25,065 nt of DNA from an uncultured Ramlibacter sp. (GTDB lineage Bacteria; Pseudomonadota; Gammaproteobacteria; Burkholderiales; Burkholderiaceae_C). The notes under the pieces are model-generated. The model worked only from the letters and a program-made list of their open reading frames with translations. It was not told where the DNA came from and made no database searches. A program made the translations under genes and the position numbers. The DNA lies in NCBI GenBank assembly GCA_964519795.1, contig CAZFKW010000004.1, positions 1 through 25,065 on the forward strand, in the 5' to 3' direction. Below, piece after piece: positions 7,804-17,418 of the stretch (the first letter of the stretch is position 1; each line of letters begins with the position of its first letter).

Positions 7804-7935
7804 CGGTACTTCCATGAAAAAAAACGGGCTCACCGCATTGTCCGGGCAGCTGTGCACCATGCCATCCAATTGAGGTGGCCGGTGATGAAAAGCATCTTTG
7901 CAGCTCGCGCAACGACACATCCCCGTGCGGGCGGT

Positions 7936-8826
7936 ATGCTGTGCGGACAGGAGACATGCCTTGACTCATTCCATACCCCAAACCGCCGCGCCAATGCGCA
8001 GAGCAGCACGCCCATCACAAGGTACCCTGCGTACAACGCTGCGATTGTTGCCCACGCCGCCCGGGTGCTCGGGCCGGGTGTTGAAGTCGTGGTACGCGGC
8101 ACCTTGCGCCCGACCTTCGGCAAGTACACACGCGCCGCATTCTTCCTCAAGAGCAGCGACATGATGGACTCCATCGTCGCCGCGGCTGATGAAGGGTTTG
8201 ACGGCGTGGGGATTGGCTGCTTCCTCGACCCGATCCTGCATGAACTGCGCGAGATCCTGGATATCCCGGTCATGGGCCTGGCCGAAGCCGGCATGCATAT
8301 GGCCTGCATGCTCGGCCAGCGCTTTGCCATCCTGTCGCACTCCGAGGCGCTCAACGTCAAGGTCTATGACAGCCTGGCCGACAAGTACGGCCTTCGCGCC
8401 CGCATGAGCGGGATGCTTGCGGTGGACCTTCCCATGGACGCCCTCGAAACGGCCATTACCGGAGACCCGGCGCCAGCCATTGCCCTGATAACCGACGCAG
8501 CGAAGCGGCTCGTGGACCAGGGGGCCGAAGTGATCGTGCCGGGCTGCGGGCTGCTCAACCTCCTGTGTGTCCAGCAAGGCCTCAGCCAGGTCGCCGGCGC
8601 CACTGTGCTTGACGTGACCGGCGCACTGCTCAAGACAACCGAGACAATGATCACGCTGCGGCGGGTATCTGGCACCGGCGTGAGCCGCACCGGCTACTAT
8701 GCGCGCCCGGCCGAGGCTGATGTGCGCAAGACGCTCGCTTCGTTCGGCCGCGGCAAGGTGGGGGGAACCGAGGCCGCCCCGGCGTCCCGTGCTGCATCCA
8801 CGCCCGGACCAAAGGCGATGGCATGA
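7936..8826 (+). CDS. Asp/Glu/hydantoin racemase family protein (5' end uncertain, possibly damaged)
   Basis: Two-Cys motifs GIGCFLDP and VPGCGLL, plus LREILDIPVMGLAE. Recognisable family sequence begins at about 7999 (QSSTPI). In-frame ATGs only at 7885 and 7936, both without a good RBS. Confidence 0.8.
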   Translation: MLCGQETCLDSFHTPNRRANAQSSTPITRYPAYNAAIVAHAARVLGPGVEVVVRGTLRPTFGKYTRAAFFLKSSDMMDSIVAAADEGFDGVGIGCFLDPILHELREILDIPVMGLAEAGMHMACMLGQRFAILSHSEALNVKVYDSLADKYGLRARMSGMLAVDLPMDALETAITGDPAPAIALITDAAKRLVDQGAEVIVPGCGLLNLLCVQQGLSQVAGATVLDVTGALLKTTETMITLRRVSGTGVSRTGYYARPAEADVRKTLASFGRGKVGGTEAAPASRAASTPGPKAMA

Positions 8827-9992
8827 GCATCAAGGGACAGGCCTTTATCGCAGGCGCCTTCGAGCACCCGACCCGCCACGCCCCGGACAAGTCCGTCGCC
8901 CAGCTCCACGCCGAATGCGCGCGCGGCGCGCTGGCCGATGCCGGGCTGGACAAGAATGACATCGACGGCTACTTCTGCGCCGGCGACGCGCCCGGGCTTG
9001 GCGCCTCGTCCATGGCAGATTACATGAACCTGCGGCTGCGCCACATCGACAACACGGACACTGGCGGCAGCTCCTACCTGATCCATGTGGCGCATGCGGC
9101 GCAGGCGATCGCGGCAGGCAAATGCAATGTCGCGCTGATCACGCTGGCAGGCAGGCCGCGCAGCGAGGGCATGGCTACAGGAACGGCACCGCGCCCCGGC
9201 AACCCGAACCAGCCCGACCTGGAGTGGGAGCTGCCCTACGCACCGGCGACAGTCAACATGTATGCCATGGCTGCGATGCGGCACATGCACGAGTTCGGCA
9301 CAACGAGTGAACAGCTGGCATGGGTCAAGGTAGCCGCCTCGCATCATGCCCAACACAACCCGAACGCCATGCTGCGGGACGTGCTCACCGTTGACCAGGT
9401 GGTCGCCTCGCCCATGGTGGCCGACCCCTTGCACCGGCTCGACTGCTGCGTGATCAGCGACGGTGGCGGAGCACTGCTGGTAGTCAGGCCGGAGATTGCG
9501 AGGAGCCTCAAGCGGCCCCTGGTCCGGGTGCTGGGCGCCGGGGAAGCCATCAAGGGGCAGTTCGGCGGTGACGTGGATCTCACCTATTCCGGCGCGGCAT
9601 GGTCGGGACCGGCAGCGTTCAGCGAGGCCGGCGTGACACCACAGGACATCCAGTACGCATCGATCTACGACAGCTTCACCATCACGGTTCTGATGCAGCT
9701 GGAAGACCTGGGCTTCTGCAGGAAGGGCGAAGGCGGCCGCTTCGTGGCCGACGGCAACCTCATCTCCGGCACTGGCCGCCTGCCCGTCAACACTGATGGC
9801 GGCGGCCTGTGCAACAACCATCCGGGCAACCGTGGCGGCATGACCAAGGTGATCGAGGCGGTGCGCCAGTTGCGGGGAGAAGCCCATGCGGCTGTGCAGG
9901 TACCCAACTGCGCACTGGCACTCGCCCAGGGAACCGGCGGCTCGCTGGGCACGCGCCACGGCAGTGCCACCCTGATCATGGAAAGGGTCTGA
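8823..9992 (+). CDS. Thiolase-fold protein, SCP-x/Ltp2-like, lacking the nucleophilic Cys
   Basis: DTGGSS in place of the CxS motif, plus LDCCVISDGG, IYDSFT, NTDGGGL and EAVRQLRG. ATGA overlap with the racemase stop. Confidence 0.92.
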   Translation: MSIKGQAFIAGAFEHPTRHAPDKSVAQLHAECARGALADAGLDKNDIDGYFCAGDAPGLGASSMADYMNLRLRHIDNTDTGGSSYLIHVAHAAQAIAAGKCNVALITLAGRPRSEGMATGTAPRPGNPNQPDLEWELPYAPATVNMYAMAAMRHMHEFGTTSEQLAWVKVAASHHAQHNPNAMLRDVLTVDQVVASPMVADPLHRLDCCVISDGGGALLVVRPEIARSLKRPLVRVLGAGEAIKGQFGGDVDLTYSGAAWSGPAAFSEAGVTPQDIQYASIYDSFTITVLMQLEDLGFCRKGEGGRFVADGNLISGTGRLPVNTDGGGLCNNHPGNRGGMTKVIEAVRQLRGEAHAAVQVPNCALALAQGTGGSLGTRHGSATLIMERV

Positions 9993-9993
9993 C

Positions 9994-10404
9994 ATGGAAG
10001 GCAACATTCCCCTGGAAGAGCCGGCGCGCACCATCGCGGCCATCACGCGCCAGCCCGGCATGCAGCGCTTTCAGGACGCTGCCGAACAAGGTGTGTTCCT
10101 GATTCCCCGCTGCAAGGGCTGCGGCCGGCACCACTGGTACCCCCGCCTGCTGTGCCCGTTCTGCTTCAGCGACGACATTGACTGGCAGTCAGCCACCGGC
10201 AACGGCACGGTCTACAGCTGGACGGTCATGCGCCGGGCAAAGCCTGCGTATGCGATCGCCTATGTCCGGATGGACGAAGGTCCCGTGGTGATGACGAACA
10301 TCGTGGGCTGTGATCTGGATTCAATCAGCATCGGCATGAGGGTACGCGCCGTGTTCCAGCCCGCTTCCAACGGGCCGCTCGTGCCGATGTTCAAACCCGC
10401 CTGA
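9994..10404 (+). CDS. DUF35 family Zn-ribbon/OB-fold protein (thiolase partner)
   Basis: CKGC..YPRLLCPFC zinc ribbon, G.GTVYSWTV, and EGPVVMTNIV..IGMRVRAVF. Starts 1 nt after the thiolase stop. Confidence 0.93.
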   Translation: MEGNIPLEEPARTIAAITRQPGMQRFQDAAEQGVFLIPRCKGCGRHHWYPRLLCPFCFSDDIDWQSATGNGTVYSWTVMRRAKPAYAIAYVRMDEGPVVMTNIVGCDLDSISIGMRVRAVFQPASNGPLVPMFKPA

Positions 10405-10434: not shown

Positions 10435-11418
10435 TCAGGCCAGCGCGCCCGCCTGGCGCTGGAACTGCTCCACGTGGCTGAAGTATTCACGCATGGTGGC
10501 GACGGCACCGCCGGGATCACGGGCACGCAGGCGTGCGACCATCTGCCTGCGCAACGGTGTCAGCTCCGGCTGGTGCATCGAGGCATAAGGCATCACGTCC
10601 GCCTGGGCAGTGACCGTATGGTGCATCAGCGTCCCCAGCGTGTTCGCCACCAGCGCGAGCACGTCGTTGTGGGCTGCGCGGGTGATCAGCGCAAAGTAGT
10701 CCAGGGCGGCCAGTGCCCGCGCGGCCATGTCGCCGCGTTCAGTCTTGGCATCCATTTCGGCCAGGTGCTGATCCATGGCATCAAAGTCCGCTTCCTCACC
10801 ACGCTCACAGGCCAGTTGCAGCAGCAACTCATAGACCCCGGCACGTGCCTCGATCAGCGACTTCAGGGGCAGCTTGCCCTGCGACGCCAGGTCGCGCAAT
10901 GACTGCGCCAGCATCATGTAGGCGCCCTTGTAGAACACCAGCGGGTCCTGCTCGCGCCCGTGCTCGAACCGCTCGACCTTGCCAATGAAGATCACGTGGT
11001 CGCCGGCCTCATGCTGCGCAAATGTCGTGCAGTGAAACCGGGCCACGCAGTCATCAATCAGTGGCATGCCGCCAAATCCCTCGCTGTGCCCGACGCCTTC
11101 AAACTTGTCGGCAATGGCACCGCTGGCAAAGCGTGCGGACAGCTTGCTCTGGTCCTCCGCCAGCACGTTGATGGCGAATCCGCTGCCGCTGCGGAACGCC
11201 TCCATCGACTTGCTCGCATTGCGCAGGCTCCACAGCACCAGCGGCGGGTCCAGGGACACCGAGCTGAACGAGTTGCAGGTCAGGCCTACGGGCTTGCCAT
11301 CAGGCCCGCGCGTCGTGATGATCGCCACGCCGGTCGGAAAGGTTCCCAGCGCCCGGCGGAACCCGGCTGCGTCAAATGGCGGCGTGCCGGTGTGATGGGC
11401 GTCGGGACGTTCAGTCAT
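10435..11418 (-). CDS. Flavin reductase (HpaC/RutF-like) fused to a C-terminal FCD (GntR ligand-binding)-like domain
   Basis: N-terminal half: FRRALGTFPTGV, GLTCNSFSSVSLDPPLVLWS, AGDHVIFIG, PLVFYKGAY. C-terminal half is helical (IEARAGVYELLLQLACER...ITRAAHNDVL...AVATMREYF). ATG 11418 has AAGGAG upstream. Confidence 0.85.
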   Translation of the reverse strand: MTERPDAHHTGTPPFDAAGFRRALGTFPTGVAIITTRGPDGKPVGLTCNSFSSVSLDPPLVLWSLRNASKSMEAFRSGSGFAINVLAEDQSKLSARFASGAIADKFEGVGHSEGFGGMPLIDDCVARFHCTTFAQHEAGDHVIFIGKVERFEHGREQDPLVFYKGAYMMLAQSLRDLASQGKLPLKSLIEARAGVYELLLQLACERGEEADFDAMDQHLAEMDAKTERGDMAARALAALDYFALITRAAHNDVLALVANTLGTLMHHTVTAQADVMPYASMHQPELTPLRRQMVARLRARDPGGAVATMREYFSHVEQFQRQAGALA

Positions 11419-11464
11419 GTATGTCTCCTTGCGGGGCCTTGCAGCACCCTTGCCTGCATCTGCT

Positions 11465-11842
11465 TCAACCGGCGCGGGGGGCACGGCGGAACATCTGCAC
11501 AATATTGCCTTCGGGATCCCGCATCGACAGCACGGCGCCATGGCTGCCCATGTCGCGGATACCGGTGACTTCCCCGCCCGCCTGCCTGACCGATGCCTCG
11601 ATGCCGTCGAAGTCCTCAACCTCAAACACCAGCACGGCGCCCGATTGCGCCGGGCTGGCCTCTTCCAGGCAGGCCAGCGAAAAGCCGGTGACCGCGCCGT
11701 CGCCCGTCGTGTACTGGACCCAGCGATCCGCGTCACGGAACTTCAGGGGCAGGCCCAGCACCGACTCGTAGAAGGCCGACTGCGCAGCCACGTCGCGCGC
11801 TGCCAGGTAGACGTTCTGCAGTTTCCTTACTTTCGCAGTCAT
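11465..11842 (-). CDS. VOC (glyoxalase/bleomycin resistance) family protein
   Basis: AFYESVLGL, LVFEVEDFD and RDPEGNIVQM. ATGA overlap with the MaoC gene stop. Confidence 0.88.
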   Translation of the reverse strand: MTAKVRKLQNVYLAARDVAAQSAFYESVLGLPLKFRDADRWVQYTTGDGAVTGFSLACLEEASPAQSGAVLVFEVEDFDGIEASVRQAGGEVTGIRDMGSHGAVLSMRDPEGNIVQMFRRAPRAG

Positions 11843-12723
11843 GACATCTCCTCCTGCTGCGCCATCCGGGCATGCCCGTGGGACAGGACTTCAACATTTC
11901 GTTCCTTGCACAAGGCGCGAAACACGATTCCGCCTTCGTCACGCCACATATGGGTGACCAGGGTCTCCCCCGGATACATGGGAGCCGCGAAGCGCGCGCC
12001 GATGGCGCCAATCACCAGGGGCGCAAAGCGCTCTTCCATCATTCGCGCTGCAAGGCCGAACGACAGCAGGCCATGGGAGATCGGCCGCTCGAATCCGGCG
12101 ACACGCGCCACCCCGGGATCGGCGTGAAGCAGGTTGTAGTCGCCGTTGAGGCGATACAGCAGTGCCGCCTGCGGGCGGGTTGGCAGTTCCGCAATCTCAT
12201 CCGGCGCCCGTTCAGGGACTGCAGGCGCGCGCGGGGCAGGGGCCGCAGGCGCTGTCGCCTGTGCCGCACCGCCGTCAAAACCGCCATTGCGCCGGCAGAA
12301 TGTCGAACCGGCAATGGTTGCCAACAACTCGCCTGAGGCGGTGTCGTGCAACTGCCGCTCCGTCTGTATGACCGCTCCCTTGCCTTCGCCCTTGTCGAGC
12401 ACGGCCACCACGCGGTTGCGCGAGCGGACTGTACCTTCGGCAGGCAACTGCCGGTGCAACACCAGCCGTTGTTCGCCATGCACCACACCCTTGCGATCCA
12501 CGCCTGTGGCAGGGTTGGCCGTCCAGGGGCCGGGGTGCGCAAGCACCAGCGCCATGGTGGGAAAGGGGCGCAGCCCGTCCTCCAGCACATGGCGCAACTG
12601 GCGCGGATCCACCGGGTCATCGCCAAAGCCGAGGCTGAGCGCATACAGCTGCGTGTCGCGCACGGTATAGCGCTGCACGACCTCGTCAAACGGCCAGTTG
12701 AGCAGGGTGTCGCGATTGATCAT
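11839..12723 (-). CDS. MaoC double-hotdog dehydratase, hydratase-2 (R-specific) type
   Basis: LYALSLG, VVHGEQ, hydratase-2 motif YRLNGDYNLLHADP, PISHGL and PMYPGETL. Start ATG 12723. Confidence 0.93.
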   Translation of the reverse strand: MINRDTLLNWPFDEVVQRYTVRDTQLYALSLGFGDDPVDPRQLRHVLEDGLRPFPTMALVLAHPGPWTANPATGVDRKGVVHGEQRLVLHRQLPAEGTVRSRNRVVAVLDKGEGKGAVIQTERQLHDTASGELLATIAGSTFCRRNGGFDGGAAQATAPAAPAPRAPAVPERAPDEIAELPTRPQAALLYRLNGDYNLLHADPGVARVAGFERPISHGLLSFGLAARMMEERFAPLVIGAIGARFAAPMYPGETLVTHMWRDEGGIVFRALCKERNVEVLSHGHARMAQQEEMS

Positions 12724-12736
12724 GCGCAGCGCCCGC

Positions 12737-13687
12737 TCACTGCGCCTGCCATGGGAACACGTCGCGGGTGCGCTCCAGCGGAACAAAGGACTTCGCCCAT
12801 CCTTCGCCGACCTGCTCGCGCAGGCGATCCATGTTCCAGCCCTCGCTGTTCTGGAGAATCCGCACCGGCCGCGGCTGGCTGTACAGGTACAACTCGTTTC
12901 CGCGAACGCCGATGATCTGGCCGGAGATGTGTCTGGCATCATCGCTGAGCAGGTAGGCCACAACCGGCGCAATCTGCTCCGGCCGGGTGCGGGCACGGCG
13001 TGCTTCCAGATTCTTCGCCTGCTGTTCGGGCGTTGCACCGGGGACGGACTCGATCATGCGGCTGAAGGCACTGGGCGCAACGCAGTTGGATCGCACATTG
13101 AAGCGCGCCATCTCCAGCGACAGCGAGCGCGACATGCCGACGATGCCCATCTTGGCCGCCGCATAGTTGGCCTGCCCGATGCTGCCGATCAGGCCCGAGG
13201 TGGAGGTCATGTGCACAAAAGCGCCGCTCTCCTGCCTGCGGAAGATTTCGGCAGCGGCCCTGCTGACGTAGAAACTGCCCATCAGGTGAACCTTGATGAC
13301 CGCCTCGAAGTCTTCCGGTGCCATCTGGTGGAATATCTTGTCGCGAAGGATGCCGGCGTTGTTGACCACATAGTCCAGCCGGCCAAAGGTCTCCACAGCC
13401 AGCGAGACGATGCTGCGCGCGGATTCCCATTCCGACACGCTGGCGGTACTGGCAACCGCATTGCCGCCAAGGGCCTTGATCTCGCGCACGAGTTCCTCCG
13501 CCGGACCGGTATCTTCGCCCTTGCCGTCCAGGGACACGCCCACGTCGTTGATCACCACACTCGCGCCCTGCTTCACAAGGTACAGGGCGATCTCCCGGCC
13601 GATCCCACGGCCCGAACCGGTGACCACTGCCACCTTGCCATTCATGCCTTGCGCAAGTCCCGCGTCATTTGTCTGTTGCTCTGACAT
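12737..13687 (-). CDS. SDR oxidoreductase resembling the 3-hydroxyacyl-CoA dehydrogenase domain of MFE-2/HSD17B4
   Basis: VTGSGRGIG, VINDVG, NNAGILRD, VHL.GSF, TSTSGLIG, QANYAAAK. ATG 13687 has GGAGA upstream. Confidence 0.92.
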   Translation of the reverse strand: MSEQQTNDAGLAQGMNGKVAVVTGSGRGIGREIALYLVKQGASVVINDVGVSLDGKGEDTGPAEELVREIKALGGNAVASTASVSEWESARSIVSLAVETFGRLDYVVNNAGILRDKIFHQMAPEDFEAVIKVHLMGSFYVSRAAAEIFRRQESGAFVHMTSTSGLIGSIGQANYAAAKMGIVGMSRSLSLEMARFNVRSNCVAPSAFSRMIESVPGATPEQQAKNLEARRARTRPEQIAPVVAYLLSDDARHISGQIIGVRGNELYLYSQPRPVRILQNSEGWNMDRLREQVGEGWAKSFVPLERTRDVFPWQAQ

Positions 13688-13734
13688 CTGCCTGTCTCCA
13701 TTCTGGTAAATAAAAGTAGCCGGGGTCTGCGCCG

Positions 13735-14313
13735 TCAATCCATGACGGCTCTTGCAGCTTGCCGCAACGCCGGACCGGGCTTCGGGGCGCCATCCCCGGC
13801 ACCGGCCTGCCGGTACCTTCGCACCACGCCGGTGAACATCACACGCCCCTGCGCGTCGGTCACGCCCTGGGGCCAGTTCTCGCATTCGAAGGTCGCCCTG
13901 GCGGCCTCCAGCAGGGGCGCTCCGCCCAGGCCGAACTCAAAGGCCAGTGCCGCAAACCTGTCCCGGCCCTGACCCGAAAAGTTGCGAGTCACATTGCCAT
14001 CCACATCTTCCAGGACAAGGTTGAGCGAGACATGCGTTGCGTGCGTGAAAACCTCAAGCCCGGGTGTATCGCCAGGCAGCATCCAGACCAGCGACGGCAT
14101 GGAGGCGCCGGACAGAACCGGCATCCTGCAGCAGCAGGCGCCGACCAGGCTGCCATCCGCACCCTGCGCAGTGGCAACAGCGACCCACTGACCGGTTTGC
14201 CCGAGCGCAAGCGCCATACCGGAGGCGCCGCTCCTGTCGGCGACCCAGTGGCTTGTCATGCCCGGCATCTCGGGCTGTTGTTCGCGCATCGGCGATGGCG
14301 CCCGTGGTGTCAT
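13735..14313 (-). CDS. Divergent flavin-reductase-like (split-barrel) protein
   Basis: The pattern ALG..VAVAT..G..VG..SLVWML..F..A..LNLV..F..DRF..G.PLL..A.ATFEC..F.G.V aligns by eye with flavin reductases, but the key motifs are altered. ATGA overlap with the crotonase stop. Confidence 0.7.
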   Translation of the reverse strand: MTPRAPSPMREQQPEMPGMTSHWVADRSGASGMALALGQTGQWVAVATAQGADGSLVGACCCRMPVLSGASMPSLVWMLPGDTPGLEVFTHATHVSLNLVLEDVDGNVTRNFSGQGRDRFAALAFEFGLGGAPLLEAARATFECENWPQGVTDAQGRVMFTGVVRRYRQAGAGDGAPKPGPALRQAARAVMD

Positions 14314-15107
14314 GTCGGGCTCACCGGCGAAGTCTCAACCCAGGCCGGCGGCCGCTTCGCGCGGAAGGCAGCCATGCCTTCGGCAGCTTCGGCCGTCTTC
14401 ATCGACTCCACCGCAAGTTGCGACGCCAGGCCGATGGCCGCGTCAAACGGCAAACCCCAGGCACTGTCCAGCAATTGCCGGGTCTGTTTCAGGGCCAGCG
14501 GGCCCGCCTTGACGAGACTGACGGCCAGGCCTTCGACATGGGACTCAAGATCCGGTGGGGCGCAGACCTGCTGGACCAGGCCGATGGACAGCGCCTCTGC
14601 AGCGCCAACACTGCGCCCGGTCAGGCACAGGCCCAGCGCAGCGCGCCGCCCGATGGCCTGCATCAGGGAAACAGCCGTGAAAGATGGCGCAATGCCGGCA
14701 CGCGCCTCGGGGATGGAAAAGGAGGCGGCATCCGAGGCGATGGCCATGTCACACCAGCTGGCCAGCGCCACGCCAAGTCCCAGCGCCTTGCCTTCAATGA
14801 CGGCCACCGCTGGAACCGCGCAATGGCGTACAGCATGTGCGAGCCGCACGGCCGGCTGGATGCGCCGGGCGAGCGCGGCATCGTCCTCCCCTTCGTCGGC
14901 ATCAAGCTCGCCCAGGTCGCGGCCGGAGCAGAAGACACCGTGCCGGCCACGCACAAGCACGGCGCGCGCGCCCTGCCTGCCGGCCTCTTCCATGGCGACC
15001 GAGAGCGCAGCGAGCATGGAGTCGTTCAGCGCGTTGCGGCGCGCCGGGTTGTCAATCCAGCAGGTCACGATGCCACGCGCATCGCGCTGGATGTCGAGCA
15101 TCGTCAC
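14310..15107 (-). CDS. Enoyl-CoA hydratase/isomerase (crotonase) family protein
   Basis: RRNALN, FCSGRDL, ALGLG, SIPEARAGIAP, EALSIGLV and EGMAAFRAKRPP. GTG 15107 overlaps the upstream stop (alternative ATG 15101). Confidence 0.93.
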   Translation of the reverse strand: MTMLDIQRDARGIVTCWIDNPARRNALNDSMLAALSVAMEEAGRQGARAVLVRGRHGVFCSGRDLGELDADEGEDDAALARRIQPAVRLAHAVRHCAVPAVAVIEGKALGLGVALASWCDMAIASDAASFSIPEARAGIAPSFTAVSLMQAIGRRAALGLCLTGRSVGAAEALSIGLVQQVCAPPDLESHVEGLAVSLVKAGPLALKQTRQLLDSAWGLPFDAAIGLASQLAVESMKTAEAAEGMAAFRAKRPPAWVETSPVSPT

Positions 15108-16330
15108 ACAACGCCCCTGGCGCGCAGATCGTCAATGGCCGCCTGCCCGAAGCCGGCCTCCTGCAGCACTTCCTGCGAATGCTCTCCCAGGCGCGGCGGA
15201 TGGCGCCCCGAAACGTTCGCGCCCTCGCCCACCTTGAAGGGCGAGCCCAGCAGGCGCGTGGAGCGGCCATCGCCCTTGGCGACCTCGACCACCATGTGGT
15301 TGGCCAGTGACTGCCTGTGCATCAGCGCCTGGTCTATCGTATGCAGCGGCGCTATCGGCACGCCATGTTCTTCGAGCCGGGCCATCCACCAGGCAACGGT
15401 ATTGCTGCCGAAAATCCTGATGAACTCCTGCACGACCTCTTCCCGGCGCGCAAGCCGCCCCGCGTTGGTCGCCAGACCCTCGTCGTTGCCCAGGTCCGGG
15501 CGGTCAACCGCACGGCAGAGCTTGCGCCAAGTGCCGTCGTTCAACGCGCCGGTGAGGACTTCGCCATCCGTGCACCTGAATGCCTGGTAAGGCACCAGGT
15601 GCCACAGGCCCGAGCCTTCGCGGCGGGGCATGGCGCCCGCTTCAAGCCAGCCGACACCGTGGTAACCCAGCAGCGACACCGCCGTCTCCAGCAGCGATAC
15701 CCGCACCGTATTGCCCGCATGCGTCTTCTCGCGCCCCATGAGCGCGGTAAGAACGCCGCAATAGGCCAGGATCCCGGTCGTCATGTCGACAAAGGAAACA
15801 CCTGACCGTATCGGGCCGCCGTCGCGCTCGCCCGTGATCGACATGATCCCGGAGAACGCCTGCAGCAAGGCGTCATACCCCGGCCGGTCGGCAAGATCTC
15901 CATGCGCCCCGAAGGCCGAGATCGTGCTCACCACAAGGCGCGGATGCCGCGCCCTCAGGGCCGCCTCGTCGATCCCGAGGCTTTGCGCAGTACCCGGCAG
16001 GAAGCTGTGGAGCAGCACATCGGCCTGCTCCAGCAGCTTGTCGAGTACGTCGCGCCCCTCCTGCATCTTGAGGTTGATCGTGATGCCGCGCTTGCCACGG
16101 TTCACGCTCATGAAGTTGCAGCTCTCGCCCGTGTCCGTCATGGGCGCCCACTGGCGGTTCTCGTCGCCGGTCGGTGCCTCGATCTTGATCACATCGGCAC
16201 CCATGTCGGCCAGCATCTGGCCACACAATGGACCCGCCAGCACCCGGCTCAGGTCTATGACGCGGATGCCATCGAGCGGGCGCGCGGCGGCTGCAGCGGC
16301 CGCTGCATTCCCGGGAGCCTGGGCGCTCAT
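15104..16330 (-). CDS. Family III CoA-transferase (CaiB/BaiF)
   Basis: LDGIRVIDLSRVLAGP, LADMGADVIKIE, NRGKRGI, GYD, and a catalytic Asp in SFVDMTTG. ATG 16330 overlaps the LLM stop. Confidence 0.95.
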   Translation of the reverse strand: MSAQAPGNAAAAAAAARPLDGIRVIDLSRVLAGPLCGQMLADMGADVIKIEAPTGDENRQWAPMTDTGESCNFMSVNRGKRGITINLKMQEGRDVLDKLLEQADVLLHSFLPGTAQSLGIDEAALRARHPRLVVSTISAFGAHGDLADRPGYDALLQAFSGIMSITGERDGGPIRSGVSFVDMTTGILAYCGVLTALMGREKTHAGNTVRVSLLETAVSLLGYHGVGWLEAGAMPRREGSGLWHLVPYQAFRCTDGEVLTGALNDGTWRKLCRAVDRPDLGNDEGLATNAGRLARREEVVQEFIRIFGSNTVAWWMARLEEHGVPIAPLHTIDQALMHRQSLANHMVVEVAKGDGRSTRLLGSPFKVGEGANVSGRHPPRLGEHSQEVLQEAGFGQAAIDDLRARGVV

Positions 16331-17418
16331 ACAGCTTCCGCAGCGACAGGCACGGCGGCCACGTGTGGCTTGTCGTTGGCGATCTCCTTCTGCACTGCCG
16401 GAATGATCACCTTGTTCCACAACTCAAGCTGCCTGAGCATCAGCTGGTGGTCAAAGTCGCCCACCTGCGTCTGCAGGGCCACATGCACGGGGCGCACGGC
16501 CCGGATGTCCGCCACAAGCCGCTCGACCACCGTATCCACCGAGCCGACGGGCAGGTTCTTCATGAGCTTGTCCCAGGGCAGCTCTTCGTCATAGGGCTTT
16601 TCCATGACAAGGTAATCGTCCTCGACGGACTCGGTGCGCTGCTTCAGGCTCACGGCAATGCGTTGCTGATACCGGGCGCAGTCCACATAGTGCTCGACCT
16701 CCGCCTTGTTGTCGCTCGCAAATGCAAAGCGCAGCAGGCCGACTTTTGCCTTCGCCGGGTCCTTGCCCTCGGCGACTGCCAGCTCGTCAATGACACCGCG
16801 GAACCCGCCCAGCCGCTTGGTGCCGCCCAGCCCACCGGAGATGAACACGTGCTGGTCGCGGCGCAATGCATGACGCATCAGCATCGGGTCGCCGCTGGCG
16901 ATCCAGACCGGCGGCATCGGTGTCTGCACCGGACGCACGCTGATGGCGGTCATCGGCTGCTTGAAGTGCTTGCCGTCGTAGCTGAACTTCTTCTGCGCCA
17001 TGGCCAGCTCGATCATGTCGAGCATCTCCAGCGTCTTTTCCTTGGCGTTCTCCAGCGTGATGCCAAAACGCTCGAACTCGAACTGCTGGTATCCGCCGCC
17101 AACGCCAACGTTCAGCCGGCCACCCGAGAGCTGGTCAGCCATGGCGATCTCGGCGATCAGCCGGGCAGGCGTATACAAGGGTGCCACAACCACGGCCGAT
17201 CCAAGCCGGATCTTTTCAGTGACGCCGGCGCAGTACGCAGCCATCATCAGCGGAGAAGGGCAAAGACCATAGTTTGAGAAGTGATGCTCTGCATACCAGG
17301 CCGCTGCAAAGCCATTGCGGTCAGCCACCTGCGTCTGCTCGACGGCCTCTTGTATGATTTGACCGGAGGACTTCTTCTGGTTCCTCTGCTGCATCAAGAT
17401 GAAAATTCCGAAGTCCAT
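16327..17418 (-). CDS. Luciferase-like (LLM) flavin-dependent monooxygenase
   Basis: MDFGIF, WYAEHHF, CPSP, TEKIRLGSAV, AEIAMADQLSGGRLNVGVGGGY, P.Q.P.PPVW. AAGGA RBS. Confidence 0.93.
   Translation of the reverse strand: MDFGIFILMQQRNQKKSSGQIIQEAVEQTQVADRNGFAAAWYAEHHFSNYGLCPSPLMMAAYCAGVTEKIRLGSAVVVAPLYTPARLIAEIAMADQLSGGRLNVGVGGGYQQFEFERFGITLENAKEKTLEMLDMIELAMAQKKFSYDGKHFKQPMTAISVRPVQTPMPPVWIASGDPMLMRHALRRDQHVFISGGLGGTKRLGGFRGVIDELAVAEGKDPAKAKVGLLRFAFASDNKAEVEHYVDCARYQQRIAVSLKQRTESVEDDYLVMEKPYDEELPWDKLMKNLPVGSVDTVVERLVADIRAVRPVHVALQTQVGDFDHQLMLRQLELWNKVIIPAVQKEIANDKPHVAAVPVAAEAV

Follow-up and report, generated by a model that had tools for sequence, protein, structure and literature searches.

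A thiolase-fold protein without catalytic cysteines and its DUF35 partner in an uncultured Ramlibacter sp.: a candidate Tyr/His retro-aldolase

Introduction

Two retro-aldolases that cleave steroid side chains have a thiolase fold and a glycine at the position of the thiolase nucleophile cysteine. In CtSal, the bile-acid C5 side-chain retro-aldolase of Comamonas testosteroni (CtSal-CtShy, PDB 9myr), Tyr302 is the base and Cys304 the acid, and activity is lost when Cys304 is replaced (C304A, C304S, C304H; Rolfe et al. 2025, PMC12329534). TcLtp2, solved with the DUF35 domain of ChsH2 (6ok1) and related to Mycobacterium tuberculosis Ltp2, cleaves the steroid C3 side chain and uses Tyr294 as base and Tyr344 as acid (PMC12329534, through which all Ltp2 residue numbers are cited here). 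The equivalent tyrosine of Sal and Ltp2 was shown by mutagenesis to be essential, and the DUF35 domain that each enzyme binds forms the C-terminal part of a MaoC hydratase; the authors argue that glycine at the nucleophile position precludes thiolysis (PMC12329534). Here we analyse a gene pair, P0001-P0002, that encodes a thiolase-fold protein and a DUF35 protein in an uncultured Ramlibacter sp. (assembly GCA_964519795.1, contig CAZFKW010000004.1, forward strand). The whole stretch of 25,065 nt that was analysed is called the window below.

Two further systems frame the comparison. In the SCP2-thiolase-like protein of Trypanosoma brucei (TbSLP, 5ab4-7) YDCF replaces HDCF, and the protein is a suspected aldolase; it decarboxylates malonyl-CoA very slowly (kcat 0.005 per s), an activity that CtSal does not have (PMC12329534). 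DUF35 complexes also organise other enzymes, namely hydroxymethylglutaryl-CoA (HMG-CoA) synthase and thiolase (PMC12329534). We describe how P0001 keeps the tyrosine shared by Sal and Ltp2 together with what appears to be a thiolase histidine, and we weigh whether the pair could be a 3-hydroxyacyl-CoA lyase.

Results

A thiolase fold with a tyrosine, a histidine and neither catalytic cysteine

P0001 has the fold of the SCP2-type thiolase superfamily. Its AlphaFold2 model, built from a 76-sequence alignment, reached a predicted local distance difference test score (pLDDT) of 93.7 and a predicted template modelling score (pTM) of 0.94, and Foldseek gave template modelling (TM) scores of 0.83-0.90 to 4u4e, 9myr, 7yvy, 6ok1 and 6esq, the first four ranking in that order. 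Among characterised proteins, the two proven retro-aldolases come closest in sequence as well as in fold: CtSal (9myr, 6.9e-53), the second-best match on both counts, and TcLtp2 (6ok1, 1.5e-45). The closest solved structure is 4u4e, a 'putative thiolase' of Sphaerobacter thermophilus from structural genomics (1.6e-87, 43% identity, TM 0.86-0.93). It shares GGSS, LDCC, YDSF and xHPG with P0001, but it belongs to the neighbouring NCBIfam PRK06158, has a serine at position 330, does not carry the Arg378-His379 insertion described below and was solved without a DUF35 partner.

Residue equivalences were taken from HMMER alignments to solved thiolases and aldolases. The original prediction, made from the sequence itself, had pointed to the motifs DTGGSS, LDCC, YDSF and GLCNNHPG, and the translation carries all four in their places. 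Gly81 lies opposite the nucleophile cysteine of the P. furiosus thiolase 7yvy and opposite the Gly-Gly of Ltp2, Sal and 4u4e; in the model it caps the N-terminus of helix 81-97, which is where the thiolase fold places its nucleophile. The YDSF loop takes the place of the HDCF acid/base loop of SCP2 thiolases. Within it, Tyr282 aligns with Tyr294 of the Ltp2 YDHF and Tyr302 of the Sal YDCY, so that the first catalytic tyrosine is retained as had been proposed, and Ser284 stands opposite Sal Cys304 and Ltp2 His296. The loop equivalent to the thiolase CxG reads GTGG, with Thr371 and no cysteine. The acid/base cysteine is thus absent as well as the nucleophile, and since both are missing (Gly81, Ser284) the covalent thiolase mechanism is unavailable to P0001.

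One element of the thiolase apparatus is still present. His333-Pro334 aligns with the HP of 7yvy and 4u4e, and we take His333 to be the canonical histidine of the thiolase GHP loop (oxyanion hole 1). It also falls opposite the tyrosine of the Ltp2 EAYIHG segment, which we take to be Tyr344, and opposite Sal Gln352; Gly328 faces Sal Gln347. The NNHP that had been noticed in the region of the second Ltp2 tyrosine can thus be read as this thiolase histidine. P0001 therefore departs from both described apparatuses: of the Sal set (Tyr302, Cys304, Gln347 and Gln352) only the tyrosine is kept, with Ser284, Gly328 and His333 in the other places, and Ltp2 Tyr344 and His296 are replaced by His333 and Ser284. 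Because the shared tyrosine is kept but neither known acid is present, P0001 represents a third active-site configuration beside those of Sal and Ltp2.

Reasoning from the fold topology, only Cys208/Cys209 and Cys330 among the cysteines of P0001 could approach the nucleophile site. Cys208 is common to Ltp2 and to 89% of the Cys-less clade. Cys330 was considered as a general replacement acid but found no support, as serine or alanine stands there in 4u4e and in most YD[S/A]F relatives. Working thiolases that have a stand-alone DUF35 subunit encoded next door resemble P0001 in the fold and the GHP histidine, but their similarity is weaker (6e-38 and 2e-30), and the aligned 7yvy has a cysteine opposite Gly81 whereas P0001 has neither catalytic cysteine. 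TbSLP is far more distant (2.7e-20) and retains the loop cysteine in its YDCF; it is not known to have a DUF35 partner.

A free-standing DUF35 protein predicted to bind P0001

P0002 combines a rubredoxin-like zinc ribbon with an oligonucleotide/oligosaccharide-binding (OB) fold beside the thiolase-fold gene, its Pfam scores being 49.4 bits for PF12172 and 75 bits for PF01796. The ribbon is of the C4 type (CKGC at residues 40-43, CPFC at 54-57), and the best PDB match is the DUF35 domain of ChsH2 (6ok1_B, 1.2e-13). The pairing of a Cys-less thiolase fold with an adjacent zinc-ribbon/OB-fold gene, another element of the original prediction, is thus borne out. P0001 shares with Sal the fold, the Gly-Gly, the YDxx tyrosine and the DUF35 binding, and with Ltp2 the Cys-less fold, the Gly-Gly, LDCC, the tyrosine (Tyr294/Tyr282) and DUF35. 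The way in which DUF35 is supplied differs, however. Sal obtains it from the MaoC hydratase Shy, as a C-terminal domain that carries a C3H1 zinc site, and in Ltp2 it is fused to the hydratase subunit ChsH2, whereas P0002 is free-standing and no MaoC subunit provides its domain.

When each protein was entered as an alignment, the predicted P0001-P0002 complex obtained an interface score (ipSAE) of 0.94, compared to 0.00 for the best control. Of 80 solved complexes, 58 come up to this mark, as do 2 of 110 mismatched pairs. Three runs agreed in at least 94% of contacts, with a partner pLDDT of at least 92. The predicted interface is formed by thiolase residues 128-156, 197-203 and 246-253 and by the YPR motif of DUF35 (residues 47-51). 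Since homologous complexes have been solved (6ok1, 9myr, 6esq, 7pxp), the score indicates a resemblance to them and may stem from complexes memorised by the predictor. In three orthologous DUF35 proteins (L029, L048, L062) zinc-ribbon cysteines are lost.

Most members of a large clade share the Tyr/His combination

P0001 belongs to NCBIfam NF006010/PRK08142, with 745.7 bits against a cutoff of 462, its residues 1-388 covering profile positions 1-387 of 388. An exhaustive HMMER search of 1.84 billion cluster representatives returned 10,969 matches at E ≤1e-3, of which 1,072 were at E ≤1e-30. Clade composition was read from the 81 full-length representatives among the top 150. None has a cysteine at position 81, where glycine (69) and alanine (7) are found; Asp283 is present in 100%, Tyr282 in 93% and His333 in 76%, and position 284 is occupied by serine (28), alanine (20), cysteine (20) or proline (7). 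Since many members have no cysteine in either loop, tyrosine plus histidine is the common apparatus of the clade, and this pair without the nucleophile cysteine is its majority state. The idea that the variant was special to this locus has therefore to be given up, all the more as the sister-family structure 4u4e has YDSF and HP. Cys-less thiolase-fold aldolases with DUF35 partners are already known; the Tyr/His configuration of this clade is uncharacterised, yet widespread and already present in the PDB.

In a quick maximum-likelihood tree (SH-aLRT support only, midpoint root) the query family forms a tight clade (support 100) within a 35-row clade of YD[S/A]F plus xHP sequences (99). The other major clade, of 52 rows, contains the sequences with Ltp2-like (SEAY) or Sal-like (YDCY..GQP) signatures, so that Sal and P0001 are separated. 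The source genome, a metagenome-assembled genome (MAG) of 4.0 Mb and 76% completeness, itself contains three Cys-less thiolase/DUF35 pairs, each with a signature of its own. On contig C188 (L082, G000:C188, 2316-3876) the thiolase-like P0275 (GG, YDCF and the tyrosine of an Ltp2-like EAYIHG) is followed by the DUF35 protein P0276, and it is thus this paralogue, not P0001, that bears the Ltp2-like signature. On contig C132 (L081, G000:C132, 1177-6827) lie a family III CoA-transferase, an enoyl-CoA hydratase (ECH), a DUF35 protein without the zinc-ribbon cysteines, a thiolase-like protein (GG, YDAF, SCVHP), a short-chain dehydrogenase/reductase (SDR) and an acyl-CoA dehydrogenase (ACAD).

Among 81 orthologues from many phyla, G81, G82, Y282-D283-S284-F285, C208, C209, N332, H333 and P334 are invariant and C330 is kept in 80; with such invariance the motifs are not due to chance. 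Near-invariant positions number 182 of 389 and cover every active-site loop, which is evidence in favour of a functional enzyme. In the insertion at positions 377-379, Arg378 never varies and His379 is found in 80 of 81 orthologues; these three positions are gaps in about 88% of the outgroup representatives. Invariant residues specific to the family include Cys330, Asn332, Arg337 and Lys342, the basic ones being R18, R124, K169, K244, R337 and K342. Together with Arg378-His379, these basic residues may bind a substrate carboxylate or the CoA phosphates.

Beta-, Alpha- and Gammaproteobacteria contain orthologues of 74-93% identity, as do MAGs that carry the labels Methylomirabilota, Terriglobia and Bacteroidota. 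Copies were found on 45 plasmid or megaplasmid records, including those of Rhodococcus, Pseudonocardia (68% identical) and the haloarchaeon Halomarina. The distribution is patchy: only 3 of 30 relatives searched carry the gene, and same-genus copies (74-79% identical) are no nearer than alphaproteobacterial ones. These observations suggest a wide horizontal spread, and the gene is an accessory, mobile module of varied acyl-CoA catabolic clusters. The matches in a Planococcus assembly (L080) and a Bacteroidota MAG (L004) could be due to contamination or mis-binning. The two genes of the pair evolve at very different rates, with median identities to orthologues of about 78% for the thiolase-like protein and about 48% for the adjacent DUF35 protein. 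Given the low value for the partner, the high identity of the enzyme points to constraint, not to recent transfer alone.

Organisation of the locus

The features are listed in Table 1. P0002 starts 1 base past the TGA stop of P0001, and the stop of the racemase-like gene overlaps the P0001 start (ATGA), which places the three genes in one transcription unit. At about 65% GC the window is GC-rich, and a 454-aa antisense open reading frame (ORF) over the P0001 stretch was discarded as a shadow frame of a GC-rich gene. The racemase-like gene has no obvious in-frame start near the onset of homology (window 7880-8130), and the long ORF that runs from 7492 overlaps an old yellow enzyme (OYE) gene on the opposite strand.

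Table 1. Window coordinates of the gene pair, its motifs and neighbouring genes
Feature	Position	Strand	Evidence or remark
P0001, SCP2-type thiolase-fold protein without Cys, 389 aa	8823..9992	+	ORF and translation; Pfam Thiolase_C_1 5e-50; NCBIfam NF006010
DTGGSS loop, residues 79-84; Gly81-Gly82 at the thiolase nucleophile (CxS) position	9057..9074	+	Alignment, conservation, model
LDCC, residues 206-209	9438..9449	+	Translation
YDSF loop, residues 282-285; Tyr282 predicted catalytic base	9666..9677	+	Alignment; invariant in orthologues
GLCNNHPG loop, residues 328-335; contains His333; Cys330 and Asn332 family-specific	9804..9827	+	Alignment, conservation
Insertion Thr377-Arg378-His379, family-specific, just past the GTGG (CxG-equivalent) loop	9951..9959	+	Orthologue conservation
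P0002, stand-alone DUF35 protein, 136 aa	9994..10404	+	Pfam PF12172 zf-ChsH2 and PF01796 OB_ChsH2_C; predicted P0001 partner
Hydantoin/allantoin-racemase-like gene	8002..8826	+	Pfam Asp_Glu_race; PDB 3qvj 5.9e-18
MaoC, hydratase-2 type of multifunctional enzyme type 2 (MFE-2), double-hotdog	11839..12720	-	Pfam MFE-2_hydrat-2_N and MaoC; PDB 7mku 1.2e-43, also 1s9c

An eight-gene minus-strand operon (10435-17418) converges on P0001-P0002 and encodes a luciferase-like monooxygenase, a family III CoA-transferase, an ECH, a degenerate flavin reductase, an SDR, the MaoC protein, a VOC protein and a flavin reductase-FCD fusion. The acyl-CoA genes of the window are an ACAD, the MaoC, the ECH and the CoA-transferase, and a canonical thiolase is found nowhere in it. 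The MaoC gene had been noted 1.4 kb from the pair as part of a hydratase/retro-aldolase module. The distance is right, but the MaoC gene is read from the other strand, as part of the convergent operon. Its product, a self-contained protein, might supply the 3-hydroxyacyl-CoA. Pfam detects no DUF35 domain in it, so that the tethered hydratase-aldolase complex of the Ltp2 or Sal style is not reproduced in the window.

Gene neighbourhoods of the orthologues

Neighbours within 5 kb were counted at 80 orthologous loci by our own ORF clustering, and two annotated plasmid records were read besides. The gene caller, based on GC content at third codon positions (GC3), is rough; several top-ranking clusters proved to consist of shadow ORFs antisense to the thiolase gene and were removed. 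DUF35 is the only constant neighbour, found downstream at 77-80 of the 80 loci, and in most of the 42 loci measured 3-31 nt separate it from the thiolase-like gene. SDR genes come next (27/80), ahead of crotonase (ECH, 12/80), family III CoA-transferase (10/80), ACAD (9/80) and MaoC (5/80). TctC receptors, class I CoA-transferase subunits, canonical thiolase, cytochrome P450, CoA ligase, Rieske and PRISE proteins also recur. Where the context is recognisable it is one of acyl-CoA catabolism, with ACAD, hydratases, CoA transferases and ligases. Two candidates for a conserved partner were rejected on these counts, MaoC and the racemase-like upstream gene, the latter being found at 1 of the 80 loci, with a link that does not extend beyond the closest relative.

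The two plasmids illustrate the variety of arrangements. In Pseudonocardia the order is SDR-MaoC-thiolase-DUF35-ACAD-ACAD-ECH-ligase; in Delftia, MaoC-ECH-SDR is divergent from thiolase-DUF35-ECH, and ACAD, acyl-CoA synthetase and TctC genes lie upstream. At six loci (L007, L012, L021, L047, L076 and L083) ECH and SDR genes are divergent from the thiolase-like, DUF35 and ECH genes. The hosts of this arrangement are Comamonadaceae (Variovorax, Hydrogenophaga, Delftia) and two unclassified Burkholderiales MAGs, with a PRISE-like reductase and TctC receptors close by in Variovorax. A lead from the literature, the thiolase/DUF35 cluster of Alcaligenes faecalis that is up-regulated under carbon limitation, gave nothing specific.

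Discussion

On this basis, we propose that P0001-P0002 is a Tyr/His thiolase-fold 3-hydroxyacyl-CoA lyase, that is, a retro-aldolase, a reading that we hold to be about as likely as not, part of the remaining probability being assigned to none of the alternatives below. Aldol splitting of a 3-hydroxyacyl-CoA is the most likely reaction because the only cousins studied are steroid side-chain aldolases, and both the 'retro-aldol' and the 'non-steroid' label would derive from this homology. By analogy with Sal and Ltp2, a thiolase-like dimer would be flanked by two DUF35 subunits that shape the substrate cleft. The steps that follow are likewise drawn from the homologues. The backbone amides of the Gly81-Gly82 loop and Tyr282 would hold the β-hydroxyl of the substrate, and Tyr282 would abstract the hydroxyl proton. 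The bond between Cα and Cβ would then break to give a carbonyl product and an acyl-CoA enolate, which the retained thiolase oxyanion hole, made of His333 and the backbone NH of the GTGG loop, would stabilise. Because the Sal cysteine is Ser284 in P0001, an alternative proton donor has to be invoked, and the enolate may be protonated by His333, by water or possibly by Cys330.

Several observations weigh against this proposal. Neither known proton donor is kept: the Sal cysteine, whose replacement by serine inactivates that enzyme, is Ser284 here (YDCY compared to YDSF) and the acid Tyr344 that accompanies the Ltp2 YDHF is absent, His333 standing in its place. Domain annotation of the window revealed no aldehyde dehydrogenase to take an aldehyde product. 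A hydratase of any kind is seldom encoded within 5 kb of the orthologues (14 of 80 loci), whereas SDR genes are the most frequent neighbours, a pattern also compatible with a dehydrogenase step followed by a thiolase step. On contig C132 the paralogue is the sole thiolase-fold gene in a stretch with CoA-transferase, ECH, SDR and ACAD genes. In the literature we found no assay for any NF006010 member or for 4u4e; indeed no paper on 4u4e was found, and nothing on PRK08142. The hydratase/aldolase module of the original prediction, in particular, is not supported, as no conserved unit emerges from the neighbourhoods and the MaoC of the window has no DUF35 domain.

The same neighbourhoods suggest another chemistry, in which P0001 would be a Cys-independent β-ketoacyl-CoA thiolase or Claisen enzyme. 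Here the thiolate of CoA, activated by Tyr282 and His333, would react with the 3-keto group inside a ternary complex, with no covalent acyl-enzyme formed, within a β-oxidation resembling that of MFE-2 (SDR plus hydratase-2). The thiolase histidine and oxyanion-hole loops are retained, and the window holds such an SDR and hydratase-2 pair. The Pseudonocardia and Delftia loci and the C132 paralogue each combine ACAD, hydratase and SDR genes with a single thiolase-fold gene among those shown. However, both catalytic cysteines are lost, the nucleophile throughout the clade representatives, and the thiolase fold has one CoA tunnel. We know of no precedent for a thiolase without its nucleophile cysteine. 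The characterised Cys-less relatives are moreover aldolases, in which glycine is argued to preclude thiolysis (PMC12329534), and we regard a Cys-independent thiolase as unlikely.

A bolder form of the aldolase proposal is, in our judgement, quite unlikely. The PRK08142 clade would then be a third catalytic solution, using Tyr282 and His333, perhaps with Cys330 and Arg378-His379. In the window, a tertiary 3-hydroxyacyl-CoA would be split into acetyl- or propionyl-CoA and a ketone, and the ketone would be passed to the luciferase-like monooxygenase and the flavin reductases in Baeyer-Villiger fashion. Such a reaction would give a gene to an orphan type of lyase, which we take to be represented by (1-hydroxycyclohexan-1-yl)acetyl-CoA lyase (EC 4.1.3.35). 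Literature searches on cyclohexylacetyl-CoA lyase and on a thiolase-like retro-aldol OB-fold pairing returned nothing.

The retained histidine and oxyanion hole, with the Sal and Ltp2 proton donors both absent, would also suit enolate chemistry that needs the oxyanion hole only, such as the decarboxylation of a 2-carboxyacyl-CoA (malonyl-type) or an isomerisation, as in TbSLP or KSQ-type domains. The invariant basic residues, and Arg378-His379 by the active-site loop, could bind the substrate carboxylate, and TbSLP does decarboxylate malonyl-CoA; this activity is nevertheless very slow and missing from CtSal (PMC12329534). Carboxylase or malonate genes are not conserved near the orthologues, and the strictly conserved Tyr282-Asp283 is a hallmark of the proven aldolases, which makes such chemistry very unlikely here. 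That P0001 is a non-catalytic pseudoenzyme or scaffold, binding only acyl-CoA or partner enzymes, is hardly credible: the canonical cysteines are lost and DUF35 complexes do organise other enzymes (PMC12329534), but identity is 68-83% across phyla, the near-invariant positions are concentrated in the active-site loops, and a second thiolase-fold gene is never a constant neighbour.

The gain for the window alone is modest. For the family, thousands of clade genes are annotated as 'acetyl-CoA acetyltransferase' or 'thiolase domain-containing protein' and cannot be thiolases as usually understood, and such annotation gives genome-scale models a false picture of β-oxidation capacity. The two thiolase-fold aldolases characterised so far rely on different residues, Tyr/Tyr in Ltp2 and Tyr/Cys in Sal. 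A Tyr/His clade, more conserved than either, would show the re-use of the thiolase oxyanion hole for aldol chemistry and would offer stable, steroid-independent biocatalysts for the formation of C-C bonds.

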